Source: Alphaproteobacteria bacterium
Lineage (GTDB): Bacteria > Pseudomonadota > Alphaproteobacteria > UBA9219
Direction of reading: 5' to 3'
Assembly: GCA_033763555.1 (NCBI GenBank)
Contig: JANRKK010000036.1
Location: forward strand, 2,418 to 66,417
Length of the DNA stretch: 64,000 bases
Shown: positions 7,183 to 54,140 of the stretch, piece after piece
Layout of the letters: every line of letters begins with the position of its first letter
Numbering within the stretch: position 1 is the first letter of the stretch
Position numbers and translations under genes: made by a program
Notes under the pieces: model-generated
Databases searched by the model: none
What the model saw: the letters and a program-made list of their open reading frames with translations, nothing else
Told to the model about the DNA's origin: nothing

Positions 7183-10100
7183 CTAATTAACCTTAACATC
7201 CACCCTATCCGGGTCGCCGCTGGGCACATTGGCGCCAAGCGCCCGAACATCGATGCGCGCGCTGGAAATGCCCTTGGCAGTGAGAAAGTCGCGCACCGCA
7301 AGCGCGCGGGAAAGCGACAGGCGTCGCGCATCGCGCGGCGAGGTGCTGGTGCCAACATCGGCATAGGCGGTCAGCGTCACGCGTACATCGCCATTCGCAT
7401 TCAGTACCGAGGCCAGCTTGTCGAGATTGGGCACGGCCTTGTTGCCGATATTGTCCGAGCCGCGCGTGAAGCTGAAAGTGGAGATCGACGGATCCAGCGT
7501 GAAGTGATTGCCGGGGATGAGCGGACGACCGCCTGTGGCCTTGAGACCCGAGGAAGTTTCCGCCGTATCGCGCAGCATGGGCGCGGCCAGCGGCGTGGTT
7601 CCCGCAGGCAGGTCGGCAGCCGTCGCCGGAGCCATGGGGCTTTCACCGGGCGCAGGCACAGGCGGCAGGGCGGAAGGTTCAGGCGGCGCAGCGAAGGGCT
7701 TGGACGGTTTCAGTTGCGGCATCGTGCCTGTTTCCAGCGGCGGCAAAGGGCCTGTGGGCAGGCGCGGCGTGGTCAAAGCGCCGCCGCTGACGCTGGGGGT
7801 CGGCGCAGCCTGAGGCGCAGGAGCTTCCGCAGGCGTGGAGACGAGAGAGGGCAAGGGGCCGCCACTGGTTCCGCCTGCCAGAGGCGCCACGCAGGCGACC
7901 GCGCCGCCGCCATTGGTGCCCGAGCAGCTCCATGTCCAGGGACCGCGGCCATTAACGGCGCTGGCGATACCTGCCGAACACAGCGCGCTGCGCGGCGTGG
8001 TTAAAGTCGGCACGCCGCTGGCGGAACCGCAAACGCCCGTGATCGGCGCAGGCGGTTGCAGGGGCGCGGTGCAGCTGACGCTCATCCCGCCATTTTCGCC
8101 AAGGCAATTCCAGTTCCAGGGGCCCTGCCCGCTGACGGCTGTCGCCGTTCCCCCGGTGCAAAGATCATCCATCGGCTGCACCAGAGCGGCGACGCCATTC
8201 GCGTTGCCGCACAACCCGTTCACCGACGGGCCGGGCGGCGGCGGAGCCGGAGGCACATCTTTTTGCGCCGAGCAGGATGTCGCCGCGCCACCGTTCAGGC
8301 CGCCGCATGTCCATGTCCAGGGGCCCTGGCCATACACATTGCTGGCCACGCCGCTGTCGCAGAGATTGGCAGCAGGAGCGGAAATTGTTGTCGCACTGGC
8401 GGCAGCGCCACAGGAACCATCGACCCGCGTCTGCGCCTGCGAAGCGGCCGAGCAACTGACGCTTACGCCGCCACCGGAGCCGACACAACTCCACATCCAA
8501 GGGCCTGTGCCCTGCACGCCTGTCGCTGTGCCGGAATTGCAAAGCCCTGTGGCAGGCGCGCTGCGCTGCACGGAACCGTTGGTCGCGCCGCAAGCGGCAT
8601 CGGTGAATTTCGGCGCTTCGCACGAGGCTTTATGCTTGCCCTTGGTGCAGTTCCACTGCCATGGGCCGCTGCCGCGCACCGCGCTGGCTTTTCCGGAAGC
8701 GCACAGGCTTTCCGACGGCGCTTCAGATGTTCCCGTTCCGGATACCGTACCGCAAGCAGCCTTCTCTTCCGCCACCGTCACGGCTGCGGCAGGCGCAGCC
8801 TTGGGTGCAGGGGCTTCGGTTGTTTTGGAGGAACCGGAAGACAGGCTGCCAACTCCTTGCGAGGAGGGTGACAGAGTCGAACAGGGAATGTCATGCCCTT
8901 CGACATCGCAGCTCCAATGCCAAGGGCCGTCGCCGCGCACCGCGCCGGGCTTGCCCTTGCTGCACAAATCTTTTTCCGGCGCACCGAAGGCGATGCGCTC
9001 GGACGCCGCACCACAAGCCGGATGATGCGCTTTCGCCGCACGATGCGCGGGCGGCGCGGGTGCGGCTGTTTCTTCCGAAGTCGCGCTTTCCTGCAAAGCA
9101 GGCGCAGGAACGGGTGTGGAATCCGATGCTTCGGCCGAAGCGGGCGCGCTGCCCAAAGGCGCCGTGCAGCTTTGGCTGTCACCGCCGCCTGTGCCTGCGC
9201 AGTTCCACGACCAGGGGCCAACGCCTGTTACGCGTGATGCAGCGCCCGAAGCGCAGAGATTTTCACCCGGCGCTTCAGCGACAGGAACGCCGTTCGCGCT
9301 ACCACAAGCACCATTGATGCTGATCGGTGCGGTGCAGGAAACTGCCGCGCCGCCATTCGCGCCGCTGCACGCCCAGTTCCATGGGCCACCGCCCGTCACT
9401 GACGAAGCGCGGCCAACACTGCACAAATCCTTGATCGGCGCTTCGCGATGGCTGACGCCCGAAGCCGGGCCGCAAACCGCATCCTGCCGCGGCGCGGCCG
9501 AGCAGGTCGCCGCCGCACCGCCATGTAGACCGGAACATGTCCAGTTCCAGGGGCCGCTGCCTGTCACGGCGCTGGCGTAGCCTGCCGCGCACAAATCGCT
9601 CATCGGCATGTCGCTGGCATCGGTGTTGTTGGCCGCACCGCAAGCGCCATCGATCTTCGCCGTTGCGCTGCAAGCTGCCGCATGGCCGCCATTCTTGCCC
9701 GAGCAGGCCCAGTTCCAGGGTCCTTCGCCGCTAACGCGGCTGGGAATACCGCGGGCGCAGAGGCCGGATGTGGGGGCCTGCCCCGTCGCGCCGCCAGAAG
9801 CGGCACCGCAGACGCCATCTTCAGCCATAGGCGCGGATGGGCTGGGAGCAGTGGTGGTGGTTGCAATGGCAGGCGCGGGTGTCGCCGAAGGCAGCGCAGG
9901 CGCAGCGCAGGAAACGATCATACCGCCATTCAGGCCACGGCAGTTCCAGCGCCATGGCCCGTCGCCGCTGACACTGCTGGCTTCACCGGATGCGCATAAA
10001 TCACCATAAGGCGCGGACGCCATGGCCAACCCGTTCGCGCTGCCGCAAGCGCCATCGCCCTGCGACAAGGCCGGAGCCTGATAGGCAGGCGCCGTTTCAG

Positions 10101-11031
10101 AAGGAGCCGCAAAGCTTGTGGCCGATGATGAAGGAGCCGTCAGCGGCGCCGCGCCAGCATCACCTTCGGGCGGCGCGCAGCTGTTGCTGACCCAGACATC
10201 CTGCAAGCTGCTGCCGGGACAGGCGATGCGGGTTTCACCGCGAATCTGGCCCGTGAAGCTGGCGGGATAGCCCGCCTCGGTGCAGTTTTTCACCCAGGAT
10301 TCGGAACGCGGCGTGCAGCCATCAGCATCGGGAACGGCTGGAGCCACGGGCGCCGAAATTGTTGGCGCTGGCGACGATGAAGTTGAAGCGGGCGCCGAAG
10401 ATGAAGCGCGTGGAACCTCGACACCGCCGATAAAGGTGCCGGATGATGAAGGCGCTGCTGAAGGTTGCGACGCGATTTGCGATACGGGCGCCGCCGCGCC
10501 ATCGAGAGGCATGCCACCGGATAAATCTTTCGGTTCGCGTCCGGGTTCATACTGAACGCCAGGTTCAGGCACGGAAACGGGGCGCGGCGGAACAGCATCG
10601 GATGCAGGCGCAGACGCCGCAGCCATGCCTGCGGCACCCGGCAGCTGTGGTGGCTTGAGCGGCGTTCCGACTTCTTCACCGCTTTTCTGCAGGACAAGCT
10701 TCATGCCCTGCATCATCATCAGATTGGTGGCGCTGGATTTCGGCGCGGCGGCAAGCGAGGGTGCGACAGCAGGCGGCGTTAAGACCGATGCAGGCGGCGG
10801 TGCGGCTTTTTTCGGTGGATGGGCTGTCAGCACATCCTCAAGCGTCATCTGCCCGGCTTTCAACGGCCTGTTGAATGCCGGAACATTGGGCGGCGGGGGC
10901 GACGGCACGGCCTGCTCGAGATAGGTTTCGACAGCGGCCTGCGCTGCGCCTGTCCAGCCACAAAGAAGCACGGCCGCCAGCAAGGCGAGCCCGGTTTTTT
11001 CTGTTATTTTTGAACAGCGAAGGAAGGACAT
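7183..11031 (-). CDS. secreted cysteine-repeat protein with C-terminal OmpA-like peptidoglycan-binding domain
   Basis: ATG at 11031 gives a signal peptide MSFLRCSKITEKTGLALLAAVLLCGWTGAAQA. Pro/Ala-rich linkers separate about 11 tandem ~52-aa modules of the form CG.A...(n)LC..G.AS.V.G.GPW.W.C.G..GG....C (4 Cys each). The C-terminus LTAYADVGTSTSPRDARRLSLSRALAVRDFLTAKGISSARIDVRALGA matches the OmpA/MotB C-domain. The track ORF start at 11061 is GTG; ATG 11031 is preferred. Confidence 0.8.
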   Translation of the reverse strand: MSFLRCSKITEKTGLALLAAVLLCGWTGAAQAAVETYLEQAVPSPPPPNVPAFNRPLKAGQMTLEDVLTAHPPKKAAPPPASVLTPPAVAPSLAAAPKSSATNLMMMQGMKLVLQKSGEEVGTPLKPPQLPGAAGMAAASAPASDAVPPRPVSVPEPGVQYEPGREPKDLSGGMPLDGAAAPVSQIASQPSAAPSSSGTFIGGVEVPRASSSAPASTSSSPAPTISAPVAPAVPDADGCTPRSESWVKNCTEAGYPASFTGQIRGETRIACPGSSLQDVWVSNSCAPPEGDAGAAPLTAPSSSATSFAAPSETAPAYQAPALSQGDGACGSANGLAMASAPYGDLCASGEASSVSGDGPWRWNCRGLNGGMIVSCAAPALPSATPAPAIATTTTAPSPSAPMAEDGVCGAASGGATGQAPTSGLCARGIPSRVSGEGPWNWACSGKNGGHAAACSATAKIDGACGAANNTDASDMPMSDLCAAGYASAVTGSGPWNWTCSGLHGGAAATCSAAPRQDAVCGPASGVSHREAPIKDLCSVGRASSVTGGGPWNWACSGANGGAAVSCTAPISINGACGSANGVPVAEAPGENLCASGAASRVTGVGPWSWNCAGTGGGDSQSCTAPLGSAPASAEASDSTPVPAPALQESATSEETAAPAPPAHRAAKAHHPACGAASERIAFGAPEKDLCSKGKPGAVRGDGPWHWSCDVEGHDIPCSTLSPSSQGVGSLSSGSSKTTEAPAPKAAPAAAVTVAEEKAACGTVSGTGTSEAPSESLCASGKASAVRGSGPWQWNCTKGKHKASCEAPKFTDAACGATNGSVQRSAPATGLCNSGTATGVQGTGPWMWSCVGSGGGVSVSCSAASQAQTRVDGSCGAAASATTISAPAANLCDSGVASNVYGQGPWTWTCGGLNGGAATSCSAQKDVPPAPPPPGPSVNGLCGNANGVAALVQPMDDLCTGGTATAVSGQGPWNWNCLGENGGMSVSCTAPLQPPAPITGVCGSASGVPTLTTPRSALCSAGIASAVNGRGPWTWSCSGTNGGGAVACVAPLAGGTSGGPLPSLVSTPAEAPAPQAAPTPSVSGGALTTPRLPTGPLPPLETGTMPQLKPSKPFAAPPEPSALPPVPAPGESPMAPATAADLPAGTTPLAAPMLRDTAETSSGLKATGGRPLIPGNHFTLDPSISTFSFTRGSDNIGNKAVPNLDKLASVLNANGDVRVTLTAYADVGTSTSPRDARRLSLSRALAVRDFLTAKGISSARIDVRALGANVPSGDPDRVDVKVN

Positions 11032-11169
11032 CGGCGAACAGAACCCGTCACGAATCGACACCCAAATGTTCTAATGGCATCGGGCCGCCTAGTCGATAGC
11101 GATTATTAGGAAAAAACCGCGTATTCAGGCTTTAAAAGCAGGCTGTTGCCGCAAATCCAGAGCGCGGCC

Positions 11170-14053: not shown

Positions 14054-15142
14054 TTAAGCCACCGCACCCTGATCCCAGGCAAGGCCGCCCAGCAATATAT
14101 CGAGCCGGGCGTTATCCGCCGCCGGATCATAGGCTTCCGGCGTCTTAACCATCGCACGGGCATGTTCCCACCGTGCCCAGGCTGCATCCTTCATCGGCCC
14201 CAGCGCGCTGGCGACCGCCTTCATCTCCTCCAGCCTGCCGTTGCAATGAAGAACAACATCCGATCCCGCCTCCAGCGCCTTGCGCGCCAGATCGTCCGGC
14301 GTGCCGCTGAGCGCTTTCATGTTGAGATCGTCCGACAGCAGAAGCCCGTCGAATCCGAGCGTGCCGCGAATAATATCCTGATGCACATTGACCGAGAGCG
14401 AAGCCGGGTTGCGCGGATCGATGGACATAAACACCGCATGCGAATTCATGCCGATGGGCAAATCTTTTAAAAGTTCAAACGGCATGAAGTCGTCGCTTTC
14501 CAGTTCGGCGCGCGTCGCATCGATGATCGGCAGCACCAGATGCGGATCGGTCTTGAGCCGCCCATGGCCGGGAAAATGCTTGATCACGGGCAGAATGCCA
14601 TGCGCCAGAAATGTCTCCGCCCACAGGCGCGCCAGAGCCGCGACCACGGCGGGCTTGCGGCTGAGCGCGCGGTCGCCGATGGCCGAGGATGCGCCGGGGA
14701 TGAGCAAATCCACCACAGGCGCGCAATTGACGGTGAAGCCAAGCTGCACCAGCTCATGCGCCACAAGCCTTGCATAACATTGCATTGCCTCTGCGCCCCA
14801 GTCGGCATCGCGCTCATACATCGCGCCGAAAGCGCGGGCCGCCGGATGCTGTGGCCAATGCGGTGGCTGCAGGCGCGATACGCGTCCACCTTCCTGATCG
14901 ATCAAAATGGGCGCATCCTCGCGCCCGACGGCGAAACGCAATTCCTTGATCAGGCCCTTGACCTGTTCCGGGTCTTCGCAATTGCGCGCGAACAGAATGA
15001 ATCCAAACGGATTGCTTTGCTTGAAAAAAGCGCGTTCCTCGGGAAGCAAGACAGGCCGCGAGCAACCGAAGATAACGGGCAGAGGCCGTCCCGCCTGGCG
15101 GCTGGAACGGGCGCGCGGCGGGGTATCCTCAGGGCCGGACAA
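14054..15142 (-). CDS. nagZ: beta-N-acetylhexosaminidase (GH3)
   Basis: ILFARN...LIDQEGGRVSRL...KHFPGHGR is a GH3 NagZ signature. The start codon at 15142 is TTG and its exact position is uncertain. Confidence 0.9.
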   Translation of the reverse strand: MSGPEDTPPRARSSRQAGRPLPVIFGCSRPVLLPEERAFFKQSNPFGFILFARNCEDPEQVKGLIKELRFAVGREDAPILIDQEGGRVSRLQPPHWPQHPAARAFGAMYERDADWGAEAMQCYARLVAHELVQLGFTVNCAPVVDLLIPGASSAIGDRALSRKPAVVAALARLWAETFLAHGILPVIKHFPGHGRLKTDPHLVLPIIDATRAELESDDFMPFELLKDLPIGMNSHAVFMSIDPRNPASLSVNVHQDIIRGTLGFDGLLLSDDLNMKALSGTPDDLARKALEAGSDVVLHCNGRLEEMKAVASALGPMKDAAWARWEHARAMVKTPEAYDPAADNARLDILLGGLAWDQGAVA

Positions 15143-15884
15143 GGAAGCAGCTCGCCTTGGCTTTTTTCAGCGCGGCGCACAGGCTGCTGGCATGGGTTTC
15201 GGTCAGGCCCGCGCTCTGCACCCGGTAATAAACGCCCTTTCCGCCCAGATCGGCACGGATGACCTGCAATTTGGTCTCGCCCAGAATGGCGGCGTATTTT
15301 TTCTGCATCTGGCCCATGGTTTTTTGCGCGGCGGCCTGTTCGGCCAGCGATGCCAGCTGAATTTTATGCTTGCCCTTGGCGGCAGTTTTGGCGGGCGCAG
15401 GCGCTGCCGCCGGGGCAGGCGCGGGTTCCGGCGCCGCAGCGACGGGGGCTGGAGACGGCGTAGGCGCTTCTGTCACCGTTGCAGGCGGCAAAGTTTCAAT
15501 CTGGCCAGGTGCGGGTGCCGCGGATGCCGTATCGGCAGGCGCGGTTGGCGCGGCACCAGCCTGCGGCGCTTCGGGCGGCGGCAAAAGATGCTCAACCGCA
15601 GGCTTCGCAGGAGAGGCGCCGTCCAGCGATTGATAGACTTGCACATCCTGATGCGGAATATCGATGCCGCCGGGTTCTTCCGGTTTTTGTTTCCAATCGC
15701 TTTCGGCGGTGATGGTGGGAATATCTTCCGGATTGGTCGGCGTCGAACCGCCGAATTTCCAATAAACGCCACTCGCGACCACCACCGCCAACAGGGCGAT
15801 GGTTATAACGCGCCGTTTCCGCCCCGGCGGATTGATGTCGGAGCGTACGGGACGTTCAGGGAACAGTTCAGGTGGAAGGCTCAT
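15129..15884 (-). CDS. SPOR domain-containing (cell division/septal PG-binding) protein
   Basis: An N-terminal TM helix, a Pro/Ala-rich linker, and a C-terminal SPOR-like region KIQLASLAEQAAAQKTMGQMQKKY...GKGVYYRVQSAGL. ATG 15884 has the SD GAGGAG. Confidence 0.7.
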   Translation of the reverse strand: MSLPPELFPERPVRSDINPPGRKRRVITIALLAVVVASGVYWKFGGSTPTNPEDIPTITAESDWKQKPEEPGGIDIPHQDVQVYQSLDGASPAKPAVEHLLPPPEAPQAGAAPTAPADTASAAPAPGQIETLPPATVTEAPTPSPAPVAAAPEPAPAPAAAPAPAKTAAKGKHKIQLASLAEQAAAQKTMGQMQKKYAAILGETKLQVIRADLGGKGVYYRVQSAGLTETHASSLCAALKKAKASCFLVRP

Positions 15885-17637
15885 GGCGCATCTCCTCGAT
15901 CGGGGCGCAGCCCATGACAGCAAGGCCGCTTTGCAGAGTTATCTGTACTGATTTAATGAGCGCGAGGCGCGTGCGGGTCAAGGCTTTGTCGTCGGGCACG
16001 ATAAAACGCAGGGAAGCGTTCTCGTTGCCCTTGTTCCACAACCCGTGAAACAGCGCCGCCAGCTCCATCAGGTAAAAAGCGATTCGGTGCGGCTCCCGCG
16101 CCTGCGCAGCCGCCTCGACAAGGCGCGGCCAGTTGGCCATGCCCTTGATCAGCTGCAATTCCTCGGCTGAGACGATGGGTTTCAGATCGGCCTGCGCCAG
16201 CGATTCTGGCGTCAATTCGGCCACCGAAAATATTTCGGCCGCATGCCGCAGGATGGAGCAACAACGCGCATGCGCATATTGCACATAGAAAACCGGATTG
16301 TCGCGGGTTTGCTCCACCACCTTGGCGAAATCGAAATCGAGCGGCGATTTCGGATCGCGCGTCAACATGAAAAACCGCACCGCGCCGGATCCCACCTGCT
16401 CCACCATCTCGCGCAGCGTCACAAGATTGCCCGAGCGCTTGGACAATTTCACAGGCTCGCCATTTTTGAAAACCTTGACGATGTTGTTGAAGATGACATC
16501 AAGTTTCGCCTTGCCATCGCTGAAGGCAGCAATAGCGGGACGCATCTTGTCGAGATAGCCACCATGGTCGGTGCCCAACACATTGATCATGAGCGCGAAG
16601 CCACGACCGATCATCTCATAATGATAGGCAATGTCGGGCATGATGTAAGCCCATGTTCCGTCACGCTTTTTCAGGGGTCGATCGGTGCTGTCGCCGAAAT
16701 TGCTGGAGCGGAACAGCACGAGAGGCTCGGGCGTCCAGCCTTCCATTTCCTTGCCCTTGGGCGGCGGCAGGGTACCCGTGTAGATCAGCCCCTTCCCTTC
16801 CAGAATCTTGAACGCCTTTTCCAGCGTGCCGTTTTCGATCAGCTCACGCTCGTTGGAAAACACATCATGATGAATGCCTATGAGGTCGAGATCCTCGCGG
16901 ATCATCTTCATCATATACTGCACAGCAAAATCGCGGACGGGCGCGAGCCATTCGGATTCCGGCTTGCCCTGCCATTTTGTGCCGTCGCGCTGCGCCAGCG
17001 AAGCGCCGACATCTTTTAGATATTCGCCGGGATAAAGCCCTTCCGGTATCGCGCCGATGGTCTCGCCCAGCGCCTCGCGGTAACGCAGATGCGTCGTGCG
17101 CGCCAGCACATCCACCTGCGTCCCGGCATCATTGAAGTAATATTCGCGCGTGACGTCATAGCCTGCTTTTTTCATCAGGTTCGACAGCGTATCGCCCAAC
17201 ACCGCGCCGCGTACATGGCCCGCATGCATCGGCCCGGTCGGATTGGCCGAGACATATTCAACATTGACCTTTTCCTTTTTGCCCATCGCGCTGTCGCCGT
17301 AACGCAGGCCAGAGGCGAGGATTTCGCGCATTTCGGCGTGCCAGACTTCCGGCTTCAGGCGCAGATTGATGAAGCCCGGCCCGGCGATGTCGACGGATGT
17401 AACGGATGGGTTTTTTTCCAGAAGGGGTTTAAGCGCCTGCGCTGTTGCCAGCGGTTTCTGGCCCGTCGCCTTGGCCGACACCATCGCCACATTGGTTGCT
17501 ACATCACCATGTTCCACTTCACGCGGCGGCTCAACGGTGAAAGGCGGAAATTCACCATGGAGCTTCAGCGCACCCGCTTTCACGGCCTCATCAATGGCGG
17601 CGCCGACGGCGTTATGGATATTTTTAAAAACGGTCAT
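15868..17637 (-). CDS. argS: arginine--tRNA ligase
   Basis: Full-length class I aaRS; HAGH-like PMHAGHVRG and KMSK-like motifs, and the Arg-tRNA synthetase N-domain. Confidence 0.95.
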   Translation of the reverse strand: MTVFKNIHNAVGAAIDEAVKAGALKLHGEFPPFTVEPPREVEHGDVATNVAMVSAKATGQKPLATAQALKPLLEKNPSVTSVDIAGPGFINLRLKPEVWHAEMREILASGLRYGDSAMGKKEKVNVEYVSANPTGPMHAGHVRGAVLGDTLSNLMKKAGYDVTREYYFNDAGTQVDVLARTTHLRYREALGETIGAIPEGLYPGEYLKDVGASLAQRDGTKWQGKPESEWLAPVRDFAVQYMMKMIREDLDLIGIHHDVFSNERELIENGTLEKAFKILEGKGLIYTGTLPPPKGKEMEGWTPEPLVLFRSSNFGDSTDRPLKKRDGTWAYIMPDIAYHYEMIGRGFALMINVLGTDHGGYLDKMRPAIAAFSDGKAKLDVIFNNIVKVFKNGEPVKLSKRSGNLVTLREMVEQVGSGAVRFFMLTRDPKSPLDFDFAKVVEQTRDNPVFYVQYAHARCCSILRHAAEIFSVAELTPESLAQADLKPIVSAEELQLIKGMANWPRLVEAAAQAREPHRIAFYLMELAALFHGLWNKGNENASLRFIVPDDKALTRTRLALIKSVQITLQSGLAVMGCAPIEEMRHEPST

Positions 17638-17640
17638 ATT

Positions 17641-18051
17641 TCAACCAACCTTTTGCCTGCCAACAATAGTGCCCTGACACCCCGAAGAGCCGCAGCTGCA
17701 TGTCATGCGCTGACCAATTGCGATACACTCAGCGTAATCAGCCGTTATTTCTTCTCCCTCATTTATATCTTTTACGGCAATGTCACATTTATCGCCTGTT
17801 GTCGTATTGGCATTGCATGAATGATTTACAAATCTTTCCGGCTTTCCCATGAGGAAGATTTTACCGTGATTGATGTCAACGTAAGGACGTTCCGATTCGG
17901 GAAGATTTTCATATTCTTCGTTGCTCAATTCTTTTGCATTCGTCCAATGCAGCACAACTTCTCCCTGCTGAAAAAGCCTGGCGGCAAAAAGTCCTCGTCC
18001 ATGAATGGGTGAGGATTTAACAATAAATCCTGCAAAGCTTTCGGGCTGCAT
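17641..18051 (-). CDS. SET-domain protein (putative protein-lysine methyltransferase)
   Basis: RFVNHSCNANT...GEEITADY are SET motifs, and the Cys-rich post-SET tail is CSCGSSGCQG. GC is about 45% versus about 60% in the flanks. The start ATG overlaps the dgt stop (TAATG). Confidence 0.8.
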   Translation of the reverse strand: MQPESFAGFIVKSSPIHGRGLFAARLFQQGEVVLHWTNAKELSNEEYENLPESERPYVDINHGKIFLMGKPERFVNHSCNANTTTGDKCDIAVKDINEGEEITADYAECIAIGQRMTCSCGSSGCQGTIVGRQKVG

Positions 18052-19235
18052 TAGTCTATCGTCTCCGACGAAAATAATTTCCTGTGCTCGCGCATGGCGT
18101 AGCGGTCGGTCATCCCGGCAATGTAATCAGCGATCAGGCGCGCCTTGGTTGCATCGCCGCTTTCTCCGGCGCGCAAAGTTTCGTACCAGGTGCCGGGCAG
18201 ACAGCTCGGCTCCTGCATGAAAAAGCCGAACAGCTCCTTCACGATGCGTCGCGCGCGCGCGCAGACGCGGTTGACCTTGCTGTGGCGGTACATGCGCGCC
18301 TGCAGGAAGTCGCGCAGGATATTGATATTTTGATTCATATCGAAACTGAAACTAACGGCGGCCTGTTTGGCGTTGCGGATATCTGCGGCGCTTTTCGGGC
18401 CGAGGCTTTCCAGATTTTGCCGCGTTGCCTCCAGAACATCCGTGACCATAAGGCCGATCACTTCACGCACCGTTTCATACATCAGTCGGTCTTTCGATGT
18501 CTCCGGATAACGCGCCTGCATGCCAAGCAGCGCGGGGCCGAACAGCGGAAGCTCTTTCACATCCTCCAGGCGAAACAGACCCGCGCGATAGCCATCATCG
18601 ATGTCATGCGTGTTGTAGGCGATATCGTCGGCGAGCGCCGCCACCTGCGCCTCGGGCCCGGCGAAACTGCCCGGCTCCAGATCCCATTGGGTGCAGAAGC
18701 TGCGGATGCCCGGCGATAAATCTTCCAGCGCGACAGGGCCGTTATGCTTGACGACGCCTTCCAGCGTTTCCCAGCTGAGATTGAGCCCGTCGAATTTCGC
18801 GTAGCGGTTTTCCAGTTTCGTCAGGATGCGAAAGGTCTGGTCATTATGGCTGAAGCCGCCCCAGGGCCGCATGGCTTCATCCAACCCCTCCTCGCCCGCA
18901 TGGCCGAAGCAGGTATGGCCGAGATCATGCGCCAGTGCCAAAGCTTCGGTCAGATCTTCATCGACGCGCAGCGCGCGGCTGATGGAGCGCGCGATCTGCG
19001 CGACTTCCAGCGAATGCGTCAGGCGCGTGCGGTAATAGTCACCTTCGTTTTCGATAAACACTTGCGTCTTGTTCCGCAATTTGCGGAAGGCACCGGAATG
19101 GATAATGCGGTCACGGTCGCGCTGGAACTCGGTACGCGTGGCGCTGCGCGGCTCAGGCACCAGCCGCCCCCGGGTTTCCCCGGCCTTGGTGGCGTAAAGC
19201 GCCAGATTTCCCATATTTTGCAGAGAGCCGTCCAT
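18051..19235 (-). CDS. dgt: dGTPase-like deoxyguanosinetriphosphate triphosphohydrolase (HD domain)
   Basis: FQRDRDRIIHS, HSLEVAQIARSI, HDLGHTCFGH. Start choice (19235, 19214 or TTG 19280) is uncertain. Confidence 0.85.
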   Translation of the reverse strand: MDGSLQNMGNLALYATKAGETRGRLVPEPRSATRTEFQRDRDRIIHSGAFRKLRNKTQVFIENEGDYYRTRLTHSLEVAQIARSISRALRVDEDLTEALALAHDLGHTCFGHAGEEGLDEAMRPWGGFSHNDQTFRILTKLENRYAKFDGLNLSWETLEGVVKHNGPVALEDLSPGIRSFCTQWDLEPGSFAGPEAQVAALADDIAYNTHDIDDGYRAGLFRLEDVKELPLFGPALLGMQARYPETSKDRLMYETVREVIGLMVTDVLEATRQNLESLGPKSAADIRNAKQAAVSFSFDMNQNINILRDFLQARMYRHSKVNRVCARARRIVKELFGFFMQEPSCLPGTWYETLRAGESGDATKARLIADYIAGMTDRYAMREHRKLFSSETID

Positions 19236-19336
19236 GGAAGGAGGATAGACCTCCCGCGGCTCTTCCGCCAGTGCGCACAAACAAAAAGGGCGGTGGGAAA
19301 ACCCACCGCCCTGAATTGTCGTCTAACCTTCAGATT

Positions 19337-24799: not shown

Positions 24800-25834
24800 A
24801 TGCGCATCCAGAAATTATTTAAAGCTGTAAAAGATTCTATCTGCGGGCTTGCCGCCCTGTCAGCTGTTGCCCTGTCGCCATACGCAGCACGCGCTCAGGA
24901 TATTATAGAAGTTGAGATTCCCAAGGCTGACGGGGCCGATGTATCCGGACCCACCAGCGCTGGACGCAACATCATATTCCCTATCAACAGGCCTGGCACC
25001 ACAGGTCATCGAATTGGAGTGTTCACGCCGGAGGGACGCCCCTTTGCTGTCTTCGTGCCGACGACTCATGAAGAACAACTTGAAGGCGCCGATGTTAAAA
25101 ACGTCGCCAAAGGCCCTGGCGGTGCCTGGGGTACGCGCTACGATGCAAACGATGTTATCAAGCTCAATCTTGGCAGCGGAAGATTTAAAAAATTTGCCCT
25201 TCCGCCGAACAGCGGTCCTTTTGATCTGGTTCAGGGATCTGGAGGAATGTTTGTTACGCTGAAAATAGCAAACCAGATCGCTAAATTAAATTCCAGGGGA
25301 CAAGTTAAGGCCACATACGATATCCCCACGCCTAACAGCGGCGTTTCCCTTATTGTCAGGGGTGGAGGAGCTTTCAGAACCAGTGTTTTCTTCCTGGAGT
25401 CCAACGTCAATAAGGTGGGTGCATTTAATACTGTTACAGAAACTTTCAATGAATACCCGCTCCCTGCGGCGTGGGGAAAACCGAAGGACATCGCTGTTGA
25501 TCCCAAGACGGGCAATCTTTTGCTCGTTACCGAAAACGGATATTTCGGCAGCATGACCCCAACAGGCAGCTTCACGGCGTTTCCAGAACCCGGTGGAACT
25601 CGCCTCACAGGCGTAGCGGTCGATCCCAAGGGTAAGGTAGCGTGCACAAGCCATCAGGGCGGCACAATCTATTGCGCAACAACCAATGGAGAGCCCCTGG
25701 TAAGCATGCAGGTTCCAACGGATGCTCCCGATCTGATAGGCGTGGCCTTCTTTAGGGGTGGAAAACCGCAGCGGGGTCTTTCTCTCGAAAGAGATCAGGG
25801 ACAAGCGGCGATTTTCCCGGTTCCCAAGCCATAA
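24800..25834 (+). CDS. secreted beta-propeller repeat protein (Vgb/streptogramin-lyase-like or NHL-like), paralog 1
   Basis: It has a signal peptide and repeated blades of the form F.LP...GP.DL..G.DG..W.T...N.I.KL...G....Y..PT..SG. It has an SD GAGGA, and GC is about 50%. Confidence 0.7.
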   Translation: MRIQKLFKAVKDSICGLAALSAVALSPYAARAQDIIEVEIPKADGADVSGPTSAGRNIIFPINRPGTTGHRIGVFTPEGRPFAVFVPTTHEEQLEGADVKNVAKGPGGAWGTRYDANDVIKLNLGSGRFKKFALPPNSGPFDLVQGSGGMFVTLKIANQIAKLNSRGQVKATYDIPTPNSGVSLIVRGGGAFRTSVFFLESNVNKVGAFNTVTETFNEYPLPAAWGKPKDIAVDPKTGNLLLVTENGYFGSMTPTGSFTAFPEPGGTRLTGVAVDPKGKVACTSHQGGTIYCATTNGEPLVSMQVPTDAPDLIGVAFFRGGKPQRGLSLERDQGQAAIFPVPKP

Positions 25835-28156: not shown

Positions 28157-31100
28157 TTACGAGATACGCCAGACTTCCATGATGGTGTTTTTCTTGACGG
28201 TCATCGTGCCGCTGGTGTTCTTTTGTATTTGAAGTTTTAAAGTTCCAGCCGTGTTCATGGATACATAACCCATGATTTGAATGGTGTAATTGTTGGTCGT
28301 GCCGCCCAGATTTCCTGTGAAAGATCCTGAGCCCGAAAGAACGTTGCTGGCATCGACGCCGGAGCCGCTTAGCGAAGAGAAACCGGACTCTACTGCCGTA
28401 GCTGTTGCGGCTGTCATGGCAAGCTTCCAGGTGGCGGTGTTGGAAGAGACTATGGTCCCTAAAATTCTGAATCCCCATACGGTTCCCGCGGGCAGGGAAG
28501 CTGATTCACAGCCTGTCACGTCGTAGGTCACCCCAAACGAAGCGGTCGTATAGTCGCTGCCATTGCCGCAATATCCGACCCACCGGTAGAAGCCACCTTC
28601 AGCCGTGGAGGTGTGGTTGTGCGCGGCAGGGGTGCCAGCAGCACCGATCTGGTTCCATGTGCTGCTGTAATAGACTTCCATCGTCGGCACCGTACTGTTG
28701 TACCGAACCATACCATCCGAAGGAGAACCGGGACGCTGGCCCGTCGTACCCGTAGGCAGCAGCATGGCGCCCGTGGTGTTCATGGTGATTTTGCCTGTGC
28801 CCTTCGGCGCGATATTGATATCGATATTGCTGTCCGATCCTATCGCCGAGATGGTAGGGCCATTGCCCGTTGTCGCGCCCGCAATCTGCACATAATTTAC
28901 GCCCGAAGCTGTTGATTGCAGATAGAGCGTTCGACCAGCCGTACTTGTGCTGTTTGTCATGTCTCCTAATAGCAGGTTGCCTATATTTAAATGATAACTT
29001 GTGCTGGACGCAGGCGTATCCACCAGGGCCGTCGTGCCGATCAAGATATTGTTGCTGCCTGTTGTTAAAACAATGGAGCTGACAGATGGCCCAATGGCCA
29101 CATTGTTTGACCCGGTTGTGACGGCTCCCAATGCATCATAACCTAAGGCAACGTTATAGGTTCCGGTCGTGTTTGCATCCAAAGCTGCAGAACCAACCGC
29201 TGTATTGTTGGCGCCGGTTGTACTTGCATCTAAAGCGTTATAGCCAACGGCTGTATTGTAATTTCCGCTGCCGATAGTAGCAGCGGCACCCACGACCGTA
29301 CTATAAGAACCTGTAGTTGAAGCATCCGCTCCCAGGGCAACGCTGTAAGTCGTGCCGCCTGCACTCGCCTGAAAACCAACCGCTGTGTTGTAGGTGCCCG
29401 TCGTGCTGGCCTGTGCGCTGGCGCCCACCGCTGTGTTGCGATGACCGGTTGTAGCTGATGACATTGCACTGTAACCGATCGCCGTATTCAAAATCCCCGT
29501 TGTGTTGCCCGAAAGCGCCGTCGAGCCAATGGCCGTATTAAGAGCTCCGCTCGTGTTGCCATTCAATGCATTCGCACCGAGTGCTACATTGTTTGAGCTT
29601 GATAAGAGGCCAACCCCCGGCCCTGTTATGGATGCCAAGGCACCCGTCCCTATGGCGATGTTCCACACACCGGAAAGAATACCCAAATTGGTCGTAATTG
29701 AAGGAAGAGTTGAAGCGCTTCCAACGACGGTGTTGGCGTTCGTCGTATCCTGCCAGAACATTGTGCCGCCATTGAATTGCAAGACGCCCGCAGAACCAAC
29801 AGGGGCGAAATTCATGTGCTGCGTTGCTGTGGCGCCGCCGACGGCAAGCTTCACAGCGGTGCCGCTCTTGCCCGGTGTGATGGACAGATAATCTACGCCG
29901 CTGGCAATGGTATTCCACCGCTCAACTTCGATGCCGCCTGCGGCAACATTGACGGTATTCGCGCCTGAGCTAAAGAATCCGGTTGTCGCATCGCCCGAAC
30001 GACGCGGGTTAGCTGCCGAAGCCGATGTGCCAAGATCAATGGTCGAAGAACCGCCGCCTGTGCCCAGCGAATTCCATGTGCTGTTGTAATAGGCCTCGAT
30101 AGCTGGCGTCGTGCTGTTGTAACGGATCATGCCCGCCACGCCCGTAGGACGCGTGCCCGTCGTACCAACGGGAAGCAGCACGCTGCTTGTGTGGGCGCTA
30201 ACATCAAGGGCCGTGCCTGTCGTCGGCGCGCTGGGACCGATGGAGAGAGCGCCCGATGTATTCATGACGACCCGGACGGCCGCGGCGGTTCCATCCCAGA
30301 TATAAAGATTGCTGGCATAAGGTGCGCCTGTTGCGGAACCGCCCGTCGATATATTGTAGGTACGGCTGGCCGTCTTCAGTGATAATTCGGAGAAAGCATT
30401 TGTTGCCGTAGTCTCAATAAGAGCTGGTACAGTCTGCCCACTTGCTGAGCTGTAAACATGCAGCTTGTTGCCCGGAGCCGTCGTGCCAATGCCAACCCCG
30501 CCCGTGCCCTTGGGCGTCAGCACGATACCGATATTACTGTCCGAGCCTTGCGCCGAAAGCGCGGGATGCGCCGTGGTCGCTGCGCCTGCCACTTGCAGGT
30601 AATTCACGCCCGACGCCGTCGATTGCAGATAGAGGGTTTTGTTATAGGTTCCCGTGCTGTTGGTCATATCGCCTTGCAGCAGGTTACCGATGTTCAGATT
30701 GTAATTGGTTCCCGCGGCCGCTGTGGTCACAGCGTTGGACGTACCAATCAAAATGTTGTTGCCGCCCGTCGTCAGGGTCGATGAGGCGACACCATAACCG
30801 ATCGCTACGTTATTTGTCCCGGTGGTAATGCTGGAGCCGCTCGACACGCCTATCCCCGTATTGCTGGCCCCGGTTGAATTGCTGACCAATGCGAAATGTC
30901 CAACAGCCGTGTTATCGGCACCAGTTGTGTTGCTTTTTAATGAATCGTAGCCCACAGCAGTGTTACGACTACCTGTTGTAAACGCTAACGCTTCATTACC
31001 TACGGCAACGTTACGAATGCCAGTTGAATTTGTTTTAAGAGCCCACACGCCGAGCGCCGTATTATCAGCGCCGGTCGTATTGGCAGTAAGTGCGATGGTT

Positions 31101-34100
31101 CCAATCCCTATATTTCCATAACCCGTGGTGTTGGCATTCATCGCCTGATAGCCTACGGCGATATTGCCAGAACTGTCAGCAGCCGTAGCGGCCAACGCCT
31201 GATAGCCGATGGCTATATCTATCGTACCCGGTTTCACGCCCGTACCGATGCCGATCGCGGTGGTGGTGGAGGCGGAATAAGTATCCGTCGCACTGCTGGT
31301 ACCAATCAAAATATTATTCGTGCCCGTCGCCAGGGTCGTACTGCCGACCCGATAACCAATGCCGACATTGTTGGTACCTGTGGTGTTGGTTTTTAAGGCT
31401 TCCATTCCCAAGGCCGTATTGAAAGCGCCCGTCGTGTTGCCGATAAGCGCCGATGCGCCCGCGGCCGTATTGCTGGCTCCGGTGGTCGTATTTCTCAGCG
31501 CCTGGGCACCCAGCGCTGTATTGGCTGATGCGCCCGTGGTGACAAAAAGCGCAAAAGAGCCTATCGCCGTACTGTTACCGCTCGTCGCGCTATCTTTCAT
31601 GGCCGATGCGCCAACAGCTGTATTGCTCGTGCCCGTCGTATTGGCATTCAAAGCGCTACTCCCGAGCGCCGTGTTCCAGAGGCCGTTGAAGCCGCCGCCC
31701 GCCTGGGAAATTGTTCCTGAGCCCGCACTCTGACCGACAATCGTATTGGCGGCGCCATCTGACCAGAACATATTGCGGCCGTTGAACTGCAGGGTGCTTG
31801 TGGTGCCCGCCGTGGCGAGATTCAAACCTTGTGTTGCGGTCGCGCCAGCCGCTGCTATCTTGGGATAGGTGCCGCTCTTGCCCGGTGTGATGTCAACATA
31901 ATCGACGCCTGAAGCAATGGTATTCCACCGCATCGCTTCGATGCCACCTGCCGCGACGTTCACGATGTTTGCGCCCGACGTATAGAAACCCGTCGTCGCA
32001 TCGCCCGAACGCTGCGGGTTCGCTGCCGAGGCCGAGGTACCGAGTGTCAGGTTGTTACTGAGCGTGCTGTTGCTGCTCAACAGACTGTTCCAGGTGCTGT
32101 TGTAATAGGCCTCCATGCCCGTCAGCGTTGAATTGTAGCGCACCATGCCGTTGGCAGCCGTAGGACGCTGGCCCGTCGTACCGCCCGGAAGCGTCAGGGC
32201 CGTCGTCGCACTCATGGTCAGAATGCCGGCGCCCTTCGGCGTAAAGGTCATGCTGATATCCGTATCGGAACCTTGCGCCGAAAGCACCGGCGCGGCGCCT
32301 GCCGCAGCACCAGCCACCTGCAGATAATTCACACCCGATGCCGTCGACTGAAGATACAGAGTCTTATTGTAGGTTCCCGTGCTGTTGGTCATATCGCCCT
32401 GCAGCAGGTTGCCGACATTGAGATTGTAATTGGTTCCGGCGGCCGCTGTATCCACCGCGCTCGATGTACCGACAAGGATGTTGTTGGCTCCGGTTGCCAG
32501 AGTTGTCGAAGCGACCTGATAGCCGATCGCGACGTTATTCGTACCTGTCGTGATTTTTGAACCGCCCTGGAAACCGATACCTATATTGGCGACACCTGTC
32601 GTATTGGCGACAAGGGCGCTTGTACCAAAAGCTGCATTGCCAGCGCCTGTCGTATTAGCGGCGAGGGCACTTGTGCCAACGGCTGTATTGGAAGTACCTA
32701 TTGTGTTGCTTTGTAAAGCATTGCCACCCACAGCCGTGTTGAAGAAACCCGTGGTATTGGCATTGAGGGCTTGATAGCCGACGGCTGTATCCAGCCGTCC
32801 GTTAAATCCACCGCCTGTTTGGGAAATCGTCGCAGGCGCGCCGCTGAGCCCTACGATGGTGTTGAAGTTTGTTGCATCCTGCCAGAACATCGTGCTGCCA
32901 TTGAATTGCAGGACACCTGCTGCACCCACCGGGGCAAAATTCAGATGCTGCGTTGATGTCGCGCCAGCAGCGGCGAGCGTCACGGCCGTGCCGCTCTTGC
33001 CTGGTGTAATGGAGAGGTAATCAACACCTGAGGCGATGGTGTTCCAGCGCATCGCCTCGATGCCGCCTGCAGCGACGTTGACGGTGTTCGCGCCCGATGT
33101 GAAGAAGCCGGTTGTCGCATCGCCCGAGCGCTGCGGGTTTGTATCCGAAGTTGAAGTGCCCAAAACCGTGGTTCCGCCGGGAGCGGCGCTGGTCAGCAGT
33201 TCTTCCCAGGATCCGTCGATATAGGCTTCCACGGCTGGCGTATCGCTGTTGTAGCGAATCATGCCGTCCGCTGGTGAAGCTGGCTGTTGACCCGTTGTGC
33301 CACCCGGAAGCGTCAGGGCCGTTGTTGCATTCATGGTCAGAATGCCAGCGCCCTTTGGCGTGAAGGTCATACTGATGTCTGTATCGGAACCTTGCGCTGA
33401 AAACACCGGAGCCGCGCCTGCCGCCGCGCCCGCAATTTGCAAATAATTCACCCCCGACGCTGTCGATTGCAGATAGAGGGTTTTGTTATGCGTGGCATCG
33501 CTGTTGGTCATATCGCCCTGCAGCAGATTGCCAATATTTAAATTATAATTGGTACCATCCGCCGCATCCACGGCATCCGTTGTCCCTATCAGAATATTGT
33601 TCGACCCCGAAGTTAACGTTTGCGAGCCAACGCCATACCCAATGCTCACGTTATAAGAACCATCTTCATTCGCGCCGCCAGCATCACTTCCGATGCCAAT
33701 ATTGCCAACACCGCTCGCGTTGTTCGCAAGGGCGCCGCTGCCAATGGCAGTGTTGTTCGCGCCTGTTGTGAGTTGAAAAAGAGAATTAATACCAATCGCT
33801 GTGTTATAAACACCCGTTGAATTTGCATTAAGGGCGTAATGGCCAACCGCCGTATTGTAGCTGCCTGTTGTATTGTTGTTTAAAGCAGAAAATCCCAAGC
33901 CTGTATTGTTGACACCTTCTGTGTTGAAATAGAGGACTTGAAGACCAACTGCTGTGTTGTTGATGCCCGTTGTATTCGACGCAAGGGCGAGGCCGCCTAC
34001 TGCTGTATTATAATTGCCTTCCGTGTTTGCGCCCAGGGCTTGGTTTCCTACCGCTGTATTGAGGATACCAGTTGTATTGAGCTGAAGCGCTTGCGTGCCT

Positions 34101-36802: not shown

Positions 36803-37021
36803 AAGCTCCCACCCACGCAAGCCTTCTGCGCCCAGGGCGCATGCCGAAAAGGAAGGTGCGTTTCCTGACTGTGCGTTTGAAACGTTAAAAATTGGTCAAA
36901 CCAATGAAATTTCTGGCTTTTCGGCATGCACGCAAAAGTTGAAATGCTGGATTTTCAGCCCTTTTTTGAAGGCAATTTATTTCAAATTGTTAACATCCTG
37001 CAGGCCGTGTATTTCAACGCC

Positions 37022-43304: not shown

Positions 43305-43538
43305 ATGACATTATCGAAAGAATCCATCGACGCCCTCAGCGACCTGATCGAAAACCGCATCGCGCTGATGCATGTCGGCGACCGCGATGATCTGCGCGAA
43401 AAAGTCACGCTGCAACGCGCCCTGTGCGAATTGCGCGGCAAAGACCCCGCCGAGGATGGCATTCTGAAGAATTTCTCGGAAATCCCCCGCCGCGGCCGCC
43501 GCCGCAAGGTCAGTGACATGCTGGGCGAGCAGGCTTAA
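43305..43538 (+). CDS. hypothetical small protein
   Basis: 77 aa with the RBS AGGAGAGAGGG; there is no recognised domain. Confidence 0.45.
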   Translation: MTLSKESIDALSDLIENRIALMHVGDRDDLREKVTLQRALCELRGKDPAEDGILKNFSEIPRRGRRRKVSDMLGEQA

Positions 43539-44566
43539 AGGCCGAGTTTCTGGCCGACTTTTGCCGCAACTTCCGGCAGCTCATCAACATAAGGGCGTTG
43601 CGCCCGGTTTTTAGTTGGCCTTAGACTTTCACTATATGTGTAGCGATCCATCCAGCCCCATCGCTCCATTGTTTGGATGGTTTCATAAAGAGGATGACCC
43701 GACAATTCTCTCCGGAAATCGTAAAACCAAACTGGTTTTCTCGTGGCAAGGGCTTCTGACATCATGGAAAGCGAATCTGCTGTCACAAGAAAATGATCGG
43801 CCTGCCCAAGCAAGGCTTCGTAAGAGAAACGCTGATCGTCCAGGAAAATTCTGGGATTTCCACTTGTGTAGGAATGCAAAATATCCCGGCCAATCTCGCC
43901 CGTGCGCCGTGAGGTCAGTACAAAAAGAGATCCGTCAAAATGTTCGGCAAGTTCACGCAGGTCTATGCCGAAATTCTGAAACATTTTTTCGGTAATATCG
44001 GCATGTTCGTCAGAGCCTCCGACCAGAACAGCCATAATGGGACGGCGCATGGGGCTGAACAGATTTTCAGCCGCCGCGCGGAAGTGAGACAAAATATTTG
44101 GCGTCAAGCCATGGAGCGCAAGGCGTGTCGGAACAACATTGTCTCCATCTATCTTTTCGTGGGGCTGTGGAACAATGACATCAAACCGATTCAGATCGAA
44201 ACGGTAATGCCCTGCCGTTCCGTTGGGATGCTGAATATGAACGATCTTCGTTGTGTTGCCACTTGCTTCCTTGATGCTGAGTGCCAGCGCCGACACTTCC
44301 GGCCGGGCGCTGACGACAATATCCGGCCATGGCGGCATGAGTTTCTGATCACCTTTGCAGATAACCCGCTCAACCCCTGACGGCGCAAGGCATTCCTGCC
44401 AGGTAACAGCGGTGTTGCTGCCGCCAACAAATTGTGGCGATTGAGGAAAGCAAGATGTAACAGCGGTTTCCGAACGCAGGCCCGGTACGACCAAAGCCTC
44501 TGCCAGCGCCACGGTCTGCCTCTGCGTCGCTTTATTCCCGTCCAGCGATAAAGTCCAAATATGCAT
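43535..44566 (-). CDS. ELM1/DUF1022-family protein (mitochondrial-fission ELM1-like, glycosyltransferase-like fold)
   Basis: 343 aa with a family-like pattern ...VLVGGS...FVLTSRRT...; GC is about 48%. Confidence 0.6.
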   Translation of the reverse strand: MHIWTLSLDGNKATQRQTVALAEALVVPGLRSETAVTSCFPQSPQFVGGSNTAVTWQECLAPSGVERVICKGDQKLMPPWPDIVVSARPEVSALALSIKEASGNTTKIVHIQHPNGTAGHYRFDLNRFDVIVPQPHEKIDGDNVVPTRLALHGLTPNILSHFRAAAENLFSPMRRPIMAVLVGGSDEHADITEKMFQNFGIDLRELAEHFDGSLFVLTSRRTGEIGRDILHSYTSGNPRIFLDDQRFSYEALLGQADHFLVTADSLSMMSEALATRKPVWFYDFRRELSGHPLYETIQTMERWGWMDRYTYSESLRPTKNRAQRPYVDELPEVAAKVGQKLGL

Positions 44567-53627: not shown

Positions 53628-54140
53628 ATGAGCGACTATAGTGATCTGGTGCCATTTCAATCGGGCGATGTCATAAAATTTCAGGTTGCCGATCGTGCGC
53701 CTGCGGCAGGCAAGCCTATGCTTGGGCCAACACATGAAAAAATATATTTAATTCTCAACATTGTCGCCAAGAATGGCGACCCCTTGCCGCAACCCGTACC
53801 GCTTGAGTGCGGCCTTTACAAAAACGAGCTGCCGCGTGGAGCCAACATACAGTGGGACGGCCAACGTTTAGTCTTTGATGATCTGGATCCCGGTAAACTC
53901 TGGACGGCGACAATGAAAGACGGGATACCGCGTGTAAGGAAAGAAAACAGAGGACGATGGATTAAAGGACAATCCGGAGCTTTTATTGATGGCGCCACGC
54001 TGGTTGTAACCGACGAAGCCGCGCCCGTTCTGGAGCGACAAGAAACAAATGTTCCGGAAACCGCAGTTCCAGAACCTATTGTTCCGCAAGGTTTGCGTAT
54101 GCGCACGCGTGAAAGGCTTGCCAAAGCTCTTGGGCGTTAA
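53628..54140 (+). CDS. hypothetical protein
   Basis: 170 aa with the RBS GGAGAG; there is no recognised domain. Confidence 0.45.
   Translation: MSDYSDLVPFQSGDVIKFQVADRAPAAGKPMLGPTHEKIYLILNIVAKNGDPLPQPVPLECGLYKNELPRGANIQWDGQRLVFDDLDPGKLWTATMKDGIPRVRKENRGRWIKGQSGAFIDGATLVVTDEAAPVLERQETNVPETAVPEPIVPQGLRMRTRERLAKALGR

Follow-up and report, generated by a model that had tools for sequence, protein, structure and literature searches.

How did a short gene for a SET-domain methyltransferase, poor in G and C, come to lie between two housekeeping genes of an alphaproteobacterium with hardly a nucleotide to spare on either side, and what does its product do there? The gene is located in a stretch of 64,000 nucleotides (nt) from an uncultured member of the Alphaproteobacteria (lineage UBA9219; assembly GCA_033763555.1, contig JANRKK010000036.1, positions 2,418 to 66,417 of the forward strand). 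This whole stretch is referred to as the window, and coordinates are positions within it. The SET gene is an open reading frame (ORF) of 136 amino acids (aa) at 17641..18051 on the minus strand, with an ATG start and a TGA stop, and was identified by ORF calling, Pfam PF00856, an AlphaFold2 model and Foldseek. It lies downstream of dgt, which encodes a dGTP triphosphohydrolase (18051..19235, minus strand), and upstream of argS, which encodes an arginine-tRNA ligase (15868..17637, minus strand). We consider it probable that the gene encodes a functional, minimal, stand-alone SET/post-SET methyltransferase that acts on lysine, and that it was acquired horizontally, precisely at the dgt/argS stop/start junction, where it is co-transcribed and translationally coupled with its neighbors.

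The packing of the three genes can be read directly from the sequence. The dgt stop codon TAA (18053..18051) and the SET start codon ATG (18051..18049) have one base in common, which gives the sequence TAATG at 18049..18053 (minus strand, ...TCGGAGACGATAGAC-TAATG-CAGCCC...). At the other end, three bases, AAT, separate the SET stop codon TGA (17643..17641) from the argS ATG (17637..17635), i.e., TGA-AAT-ATG at 17635..17643 (minus strand, ...AAAGGTTGGT-TGA-AAT-ATG-ACCGTT...). Gene spacing is -1 nt between dgt and SET and +3 nt between SET and argS. An initial annotation of this DNA had recognized the TAATG overlap and both neighbors. Dgt passes the NCBIfam dGTPase equivalog NF002328 with 505 bits (cut-off 467) and has Pfam HD and HD_assoc domains. 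ArgS passes TIGR00456 with 339 bits (cut-off 262), and its N-terminus, MTVFKNIH, aligns with the MTIFK... of relatives. The same annotation had placed the SET gene at 17641–18053; an ORF is present there and the start of the interval is right, but the end at 18053 takes in the dgt stop codon, and the upper coordinate of the ORF is 18051. The distance of 4 nt that it gave between SET and argS is corrected to 3 nt.

The base composition sets the SET gene apart from both neighbors. Its GC content is 0.450 and its GC content at third codon positions (GC3) is 0.401, vs. 0.598 and 0.727 for dgt and 0.575 and 0.698 for argS. Typical neighboring genes have GC3 values of 0.60–0.73 vs. 0.40 for the SET gene, which is the lowest among the 43 ORFs of at least 100 aa in the window. 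When the gene is compared with all 411-nt segments of the window, the GC z value is -2.8 and equally low segments amount to 1.3%; the other low-GC segments are mostly intergenic or are found within two other orphan low-GC ORFs. The gene is compositionally foreign, and the contrast of about 45% to about 60% GC that was first pointed out for this locus is borne out. SET homologs elsewhere follow the GC content of their hosts. Among them (n = 107), the difference in GC between gene and flanks has a mean of -0.024, a standard deviation of 0.030 and a minimum of -0.109; the difference for the window gene is approximately -0.13. The low GC is not imposed by the SET family, since a homolog in a host of 70% GC (L014) has a GC3 of 0.95.

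The same junction was compared in relatives, whose dgt loci were reached through Dgt homologs. No SET gene is found between dgt and argS in four related lineages with Dgt identities of 75–80%. The two genes abut directly in L005 (78% Dgt identity, TAAATG) and in L155 (77%), and they overlap in L006/L007 (80%, TGATG) and in L008/L009 (77%, TTGA). L008 and L155 share the whole synteny of the window, leuS-DUF3576-porin-dgt-argS-SPOR-nagZ-scpA, and the order argS-SPOR-nagZ is found also in L005 as in L008 and L155. The native junction in relatives reads ...ACGGAGACGATG CTT TAA ATG ACA ATT TTT AAA. Alignment of the window to the native sequence ends after ...GGAGACGAT and resumes exactly at ATGACCGTTTTTAAA, and therefore the insert appears to have taken the place of the final two codons of dgt and its stop codon. 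Taken as sequence evidence, the composition and the comparison of junctions support the acquisition of the low-GC SET gene from another organism and its insertion at the dgt–argS junction. An insertion into the operon had been proposed in the initial annotation, with the provision that homologs of native-like GC in the same slot of relatives would instead mark the gene as an old resident. No such homologs are present in the four lineages compared.

A gene that was ancestral at the junction and was lost in the relatives, with a low GC that is specific to the family, would leave a similar pattern. The relatives are only 75–80% identical, their branching is poorly resolved, and one early loss is formally allowed by parsimony. 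However, in neighbor-joining trees of Dgt and of ArgS with L153 as the outgroup, the window is nested among the four SET-less lineages, and each loss would need to restore a perfect stop/start overlap. In addition, high-GC hosts have high-GC homologs, no homolog adjoins dgt or argS, and the nearest homolog, 55% identical, lies in an unrelated context. Ancestral presence followed by loss is thus highly improbable.

The junction could also have been created during assembly or binning as a chimeric join. The evidence for both the protein and its arrangement comes from one contig (198,818 bp) of a metagenome-assembled genome, and neither the exact protein nor an independent copy of the junction was found in the contig index. 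A chimera would require two breakpoints 414 nt apart that produce an in-frame TAATG, spare dgt except for its last two codons, and resume at the argS ATG. There are no repeats flanking the SET gene that could mislead an assembler, and an artefact of this kind is extremely improbable. With regard to an insertion in the genome itself, no mobile-element scars, integrase, transposase, or flanking direct or inverted repeats are found at the SET gene, whose neighbors are dgt and argS. The repeats around the gene are short and at chance level, and intergenic spaces of 0 and 3 nt leave no room for an attC-like site.

The search for homologs fits a foreign origin. The SET protein is a singleton among 5.8 billion proteins, with the next best match 55% identical. 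An exhaustive HMMER search of 1.84 billion representatives, clustered at 50% identity, matched 2816 clusters at E<=1e-3. Of these, 231 reach E<=1e-10 and 5 reach E<=1e-30, and stand-alone proteins of 125–165 aa predominate among the best. With 2816 clusters matched, the view expressed in the initial annotation that bacterial SET proteins are uncommon holds in a relative sense only. A search of genome contigs with the single protein detected only relatives of 30–32% identity (Saprospiraceae, Promethearchaeia and Algoriphagus). With tblastn, neither dgt nor argS was found near SET homologs in approximately 130 loci (the search covered 4 contig look-ups and 3 genomic, 80 metagenomic and 60 viral loci). 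The closest homolog (P0002, locus L004) has 55–56% identity, is the neighbor-joining sister of the window protein, and lies in an unrelated context on a contig of 33–34% GC, next to a bacterial TIGR00027-type methyltransferase. A homology search with this methyltransferase gave best matches of about 54% identity with scattered names (Methyloceanibacter, Chthoniobacter), which shows only that the sister contig is bacterial. Another close homolog (P0005, 52% identity) is on an archaeal-type contig with MCM, Trm5/TYW2 and DUF234. Overall, the homologs occur among various metagenomic bacteria of the free-living type and in at least one archaeon. The proposed donor would be a lower-GC organism, probably a bacterium.

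Phage carriage is a possible route of transfer. SET relatives on viral contigs have identities of only 24–41%, and structural matches in BFVD (among those at E<=0.01) are to giant-virus and phage SET proteins with 10–28% identity. The SET gene was also considered as a gene of a defense system or of a phage; this was rejected, as the protein has no PADLOC or PHROGs match at E<=0.01. The neighboring Dgt matches the generic dGTPase of PADLOC; it fails the NCBIfam cut-off for the anti-phage dGTPase (259 vs. 400) and passes the housekeeping equivalog. At the locus of one homolog with 45% identity (P0008; L012:346-2687, 32% GC), a NUDIX gene lies on each side of the SET gene, and small phage-like ORFs follow.

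How would a gene without flanking space be expressed? A Shine-Dalgarno-like GGAG is located in the 3' end of dgt (18063..18066, minus strand), 11 nt 5' of the SET ATG, where it may serve as a ribosome-binding site. L005 and L008 have kept the same motif (ACGGAGACGAT), and L006 has GGAA. Because it precedes argS in these relatives, GGAG is best explained as the ancestral argS ribosome-binding site that now serves SET. A weak Shine-Dalgarno-like AAGGT is present in the 3' end of SET (17648..17652, minus strand), 10 nt 5' of the argS ATG, and is a candidate for the corresponding role in argS.

No promoter-like or terminator-like site was detected on the minus strand between dgt, SET and argS, although a simple consensus scan provides weak evidence on this point. 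The only promoter-like match on the minus strand from the upstream hairpin to the end of argS is inside argS. This hairpin (19287..19312, minus strand) is found after the porin gene by a terminator scan and resembles a strong intrinsic terminator, with 11 base pairs, nine of them G-C, and a T-run. It appears to mark the upstream boundary of the dgt-SET-argS unit, and it bears on the start of dgt as well. The longest dgt ORF is 18051..19280 (TTG at 19280, 409 aa), whose start would fall in the T-tail of the hairpin (19312..19287). The ATG at 19235 is the likelier start, since the TTG form overlaps the upstream terminator and the ATG form, of 394 aa and beginning with MDGSLQ, matches relatives and the public annotation (P0023). 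Downstream of argS, a gene for a SPOR-domain protein (15129..15923) and a nagZ-like GH3 gene (14054..15142), both on the minus strand and assigned by ORF and Pfam, overlap in the same apparent operon.

With spacings of -1 and +3 nt and no separating site, the most economical interpretation is one transcript with sequential, coupled translation of dgt, SET and argS. The co-transcription with housekeeping genes proposed in the initial annotation fits this geometry and the lack of promoter-like and terminator-like sites. According to the mechanism proposed here, transfer from a lower-GC donor would have brought the SET gene to the dgt–argS stop/start junction with neither a promoter nor a terminator of its own and with no remnants of a mobile element. 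The gene would be transcribed within a dgt-SET-argS-SPOR-nagZ unit and translated by termination-reinitiation at TAATG, with the ancestral GGAG of argS as its ribosome-binding site; translation of argS would follow 3 nt after the SET stop codon.

The identity of the product as a SET protein is clear from sequence motifs. Pfam PF00856 matches with E=1.4e-13 and 51.6 bits (cut-off 22.4) over profile positions 1–104 of 105, and it is the sole Pfam domain. SET motifs were defined as GxG, (R)FxNHxC and ELxF/YDY with a conserved Tyr (PMC3980110). The protein has IHGRGLF (aa 16–22), RFVNHSCNAN (aa 73–82, with NHSCNAN at aa 76–82), GEEITADY (aa 99–106, with EEITADY at aa 100–106) and a Cys-rich tail, CSCGSSGC (aa 118–125), all of which align to MLL1; the initial description of a compact 136-aa SET domain with NHSCNAN, EEITADY and a Cys-rich tail was therefore accurate. 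An alignment of 22 family sequences has 12 invariant columns, and all are kept in the window protein. They include G20 (IHGRG), N76/H77/C79/N82 (NHSCxxN) and C118/C120/C125 (CxCxxxxC), and Y106 (DY) is nearly invariant. The post-SET zinc-cluster pattern, C118-S-C120-GSSG-C125 together with C79, is present and aligns to CNCGAKKC of MLL1. The family profile matches the SET and post-SET regions of MLL1 over the full length with E=1.4e-25, with GxG, NHSC, DY and CxCxxxxC aligned, and the single sequence matches MLL1 with E=8e-11. There is very little sequence beyond the SET and post-SET regions: approximately 9 residues precede the first strand, and 11 follow the last Cys.

The AlphaFold2 model (predicted local distance difference test 90.5, predicted template modeling score 0.81) is all-beta with two short helices, and a SET beta-fold is predicted. 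Foldseek searches of the PDB gave a probability of 1.00 to MLL1, MLL3/4, ASH1L, SETD2, NSD and vSET, with template modeling (TM) scores of 0.66–0.78 to many solved SET domains. A loss of the residues that bind S-adenosylmethionine (SAM) on modeling, which would have spoken against a methyltransferase, is not observed, and the motifs are intact. It is proposed that SAM would be bound through the IHGRG and NHSC motifs, that a zinc ion would be held by Cys79 and the CxCxxxxC tail, and that an endogenous protein would be methylated at the epsilon-amino group of a lysine through the conserved Tyr106 channel.

A protein lysine is the most likely substrate. The identical protein is annotated by NCBI as 'SET domain-containing protein-lysine N-methyltransferase [Alphaproteobacteria bacterium]'. 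Host and nucleoid proteins are described in the literature (PMC3980110) as targets of bacterial SET proteins, as the initial annotation also noted. Small stand-alone bacterial SET proteins can nevertheless act on metabolites. BurB of Burkholderia thailandensis S-methylates free methionine to S-methylmethionine (PMC12542666), the family profile matches BurB (PDB 9l4t) with E=6e-11, and the SET gene adjoins genes of nucleotide metabolism and tRNA charging, not chromatin genes. A small-molecule methyltransferase of this type is a serious alternative, but an unlikely one. The BurB match covers profile positions 75–132 only, which is the C-terminal half and not full-length homology, and the single sequence gives no match at E<=1e-3. 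In contrast, lysine methyltransferases of the MLL type are matched over the full length (E=1e-25) and are the top structural matches, and the post-SET CxCxxxxC is present.

A second alternative for the acceptor is a eukaryotic host histone, with the SET protein as a secreted nucleomodulin of the NUE, RomA/LegAS4 or BtSET type. Effectors of this kind are the best characterized SET proteins of bacteria (PMC3980110, PMC2904774, PMC10653858), and the closest similarity of the catalytic domain is to MLL1-4, which are eukaryotic H3K4 methyltransferases. This role is very unlikely for a protein of only 136 aa that starts at the SET-N strand, ends 11 residues past the post-SET and has no accessory or targeting domain. 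Expression appears to be driven by a housekeeping operon, the ORFs of the window that were examined include no gene of a secretion system, and, as described above, homologs occur in free-living-type bacteria and in an archaeon.

Several observations weigh against a horizontally acquired lysine methyltransferase at this junction. The internal branching of the relatives with 75–80% identity is star-like, so that the polarity of the change rests partly on composition. The protein is a singleton cluster from one contig of a metagenome-assembled genome, so that the junction is known from this one copy. Pfam scans of the neighbors of homologs (L004, L013 and L016) gave no assignable name for a donor lineage. 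At the position that aligns with the Phe/Tyr product-specificity switch of MLL1 (Tyr3942), the window protein has Ala104, which is non-aromatic, and the family has A, S, T or V. The small residue at position 104 suggests a roomy active site. Lastly, BurB is a stand-alone bacterial SET enzyme whose acceptor is free methionine and not lysine (PMC12542666). A horizontally acquired, active SAM-dependent SET methyltransferase, most likely with a lysine of an endogenous protein as the acceptor, remains the best supported interpretation.

Other cargo is present at the dgt–argS junction in a more distant relative. In L153/L154 (67% Dgt identity by alignment, 68% by BLASTP), the junction holds two other genes, a 183-aa ORF and a 150-aa NUDIX hydrolase (L153:5209-6209; L154:2314-3314). 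The 183-aa ORF of L153 has no Pfam, PADLOC or PHROGs match. GC contents in L153 are 0.415 for this ORF and 0.483 for the NUDIX gene vs. 0.583 for dgt and 0.563 for argS, and the genes are tightly packed, 8 nt apart at the first boundary, overlapping by 4 nt at the second and 27 nt apart at the third. The NUDIX gene here and the two NUDIX genes beside SET in L012 may be a coincidence or a recurring association. In two loci with approximately 70% Dgt identity, genes other than argS lie downstream of dgt. In L156 (L156:3501-6797) dgt is followed by a 341-aa ORF and then by nagZ-scpA-scpB, and in L158 (L158:3501-8149) by an AAA_33-like ORF of 240 aa and then by a convergent PPDK gene. Downstream of dgt, this group shows repeated rearrangement. 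Because of the L153 cargo and the varied downstream genes, the junction may be permissive for foreign cargo. A further proposal is that the junction is, in this alphaproteobacterial group, a recurrent landing site for promoterless foreign ORFs, which would be expressed there through translational coupling, and that the SET enzyme methylates a component connected with its operon partners, for instance ArgRS, Dgt or another protein of translation or of the nucleotide pool. This is distinctly unlikely; if true, it would represent a lineage-specific regulatory modification by a junction-captured SET enzyme.

The window has other ORFs of unusual composition. Two ORFs without a Pfam match, at 59194-59751 (minus strand, 185 aa, GC 0.466, GC3 0.478) and 53628-54140 (plus strand, 170 aa, GC3 0.456), may represent further foreign genes; the lowest-GC 411-nt segment of the window starts at 53250. 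Moderately low GC3 values are found in the ORFs at 43535-44566 (minus strand, 0.517) and 24800-25834 (plus strand, 0.507), of which one belongs to the ELM1/Mito_fiss_Elm1 family (PF06258, E=2.6e-49) and the other is a beta-propeller of the virginiamycin B lyase family. A large ORF at 28157-36820 (minus strand, 2887 aa) matches no Pfam family at E<=1e-5. Its product consists of about 62% G/T/A/S/N, has an N-terminal hydrophobic segment and recurring '...TGQRP..GMVRYNST...YYNSTWN' modules, and the GC of the ORF at second codon positions (0.585) is higher than at first positions (0.514). In the 1292-aa ORF at 7183-11061 (minus strand), only a C-terminal OmpA domain is recognized; its second-position GC of 0.68 suggests a long low-complexity region rich in Ala, Pro and Gly. 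No Rfam model reaches its gathering score across positions 1-64000 (no match to tRNA, ribosomal RNA, riboswitch or small RNA models).

Among known systems, the best match in both sequence and structure is MLL1/KMT2A (PDB 2w5y, 5f5e, 7u5v), with a Foldseek E value of 3e-8 and 27–29% identity. The two proteins have in common IHGRGLF, (R)F(I/V)NHSC, GEE(L/I)TxDY and CxCGxxxC. The window protein differs in having 136 aa with no other domain, a shorter SET-I insert and the Ala at the switch position. The MLL enzymes are very large, occur in eukaryotes and require WDR5/RbBP5/ASH2L, and the likeness is confined to the catalytic module. With SET alone and identities of 24–32% to MLL SET domains, the protein does not have the multidomain character of the KMT2/MLL family. 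Closer in size is vSET of Paramecium bursaria chlorella virus 1 (PDB 3kma), a protein of approximately 120 aa with a TM score of 0.81 (normalized to the target) and 26% identity, in a match that spans 109 columns only. vSET is without a Cys-rich post-SET and is a dimeric viral H3K27 methyltransferase that acts on host chromatin.

Prokaryotic SET proteins offer further comparisons. Go1-SET of Methanosarcina mazei is a small stand-alone prokaryotic SET protein (PMC3980110), and the window protein is likewise small and single-domain. Go1-SET methylates an endogenous DNA-binding protein, the archaeal chromatin protein MC1-alpha (PMC3980110); MC1 is archaeal, so an alphaproteobacterium would need another substrate, and the likeness to Go1-SET is by description. 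BurB (PDB 9l4t), at 172 aa, is of similar size, is a stand-alone bacterial SET protein and also uses SAM. The bacterial SET lysine methyltransferases NUE (Chlamydia), RomA/LegAS4 (Legionella), BtSET (Burkholderia) and BaSET (Bacillus anthracis) are also known (PMC3980110, PMC2904774, PMC10653858). The secreted effectors are larger, e.g., RomA has ankyrin repeats, and are from host-associated pathogens, whereas the window protein is without an accessory region.

The SET gene is a probable case of gene transfer that is already auto-annotated publicly as a SET-domain lysine methyltransferase, and it represents no new category. The dgt-SET-argS arrangement appears to be a clean, well-bounded example of a bare foreign ORF that entered a conserved, essential operon without harm: the gene would take over the ribosome-binding context of argS, and translation would continue with argS 3 nt after the SET stop codon. 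The small size of the protein and the high-confidence model make it convenient for substrate discovery. With at most 56% identity to anything known, it adds a divergent member to the little-studied minimal stand-alone SET methyltransferases of prokaryotes.

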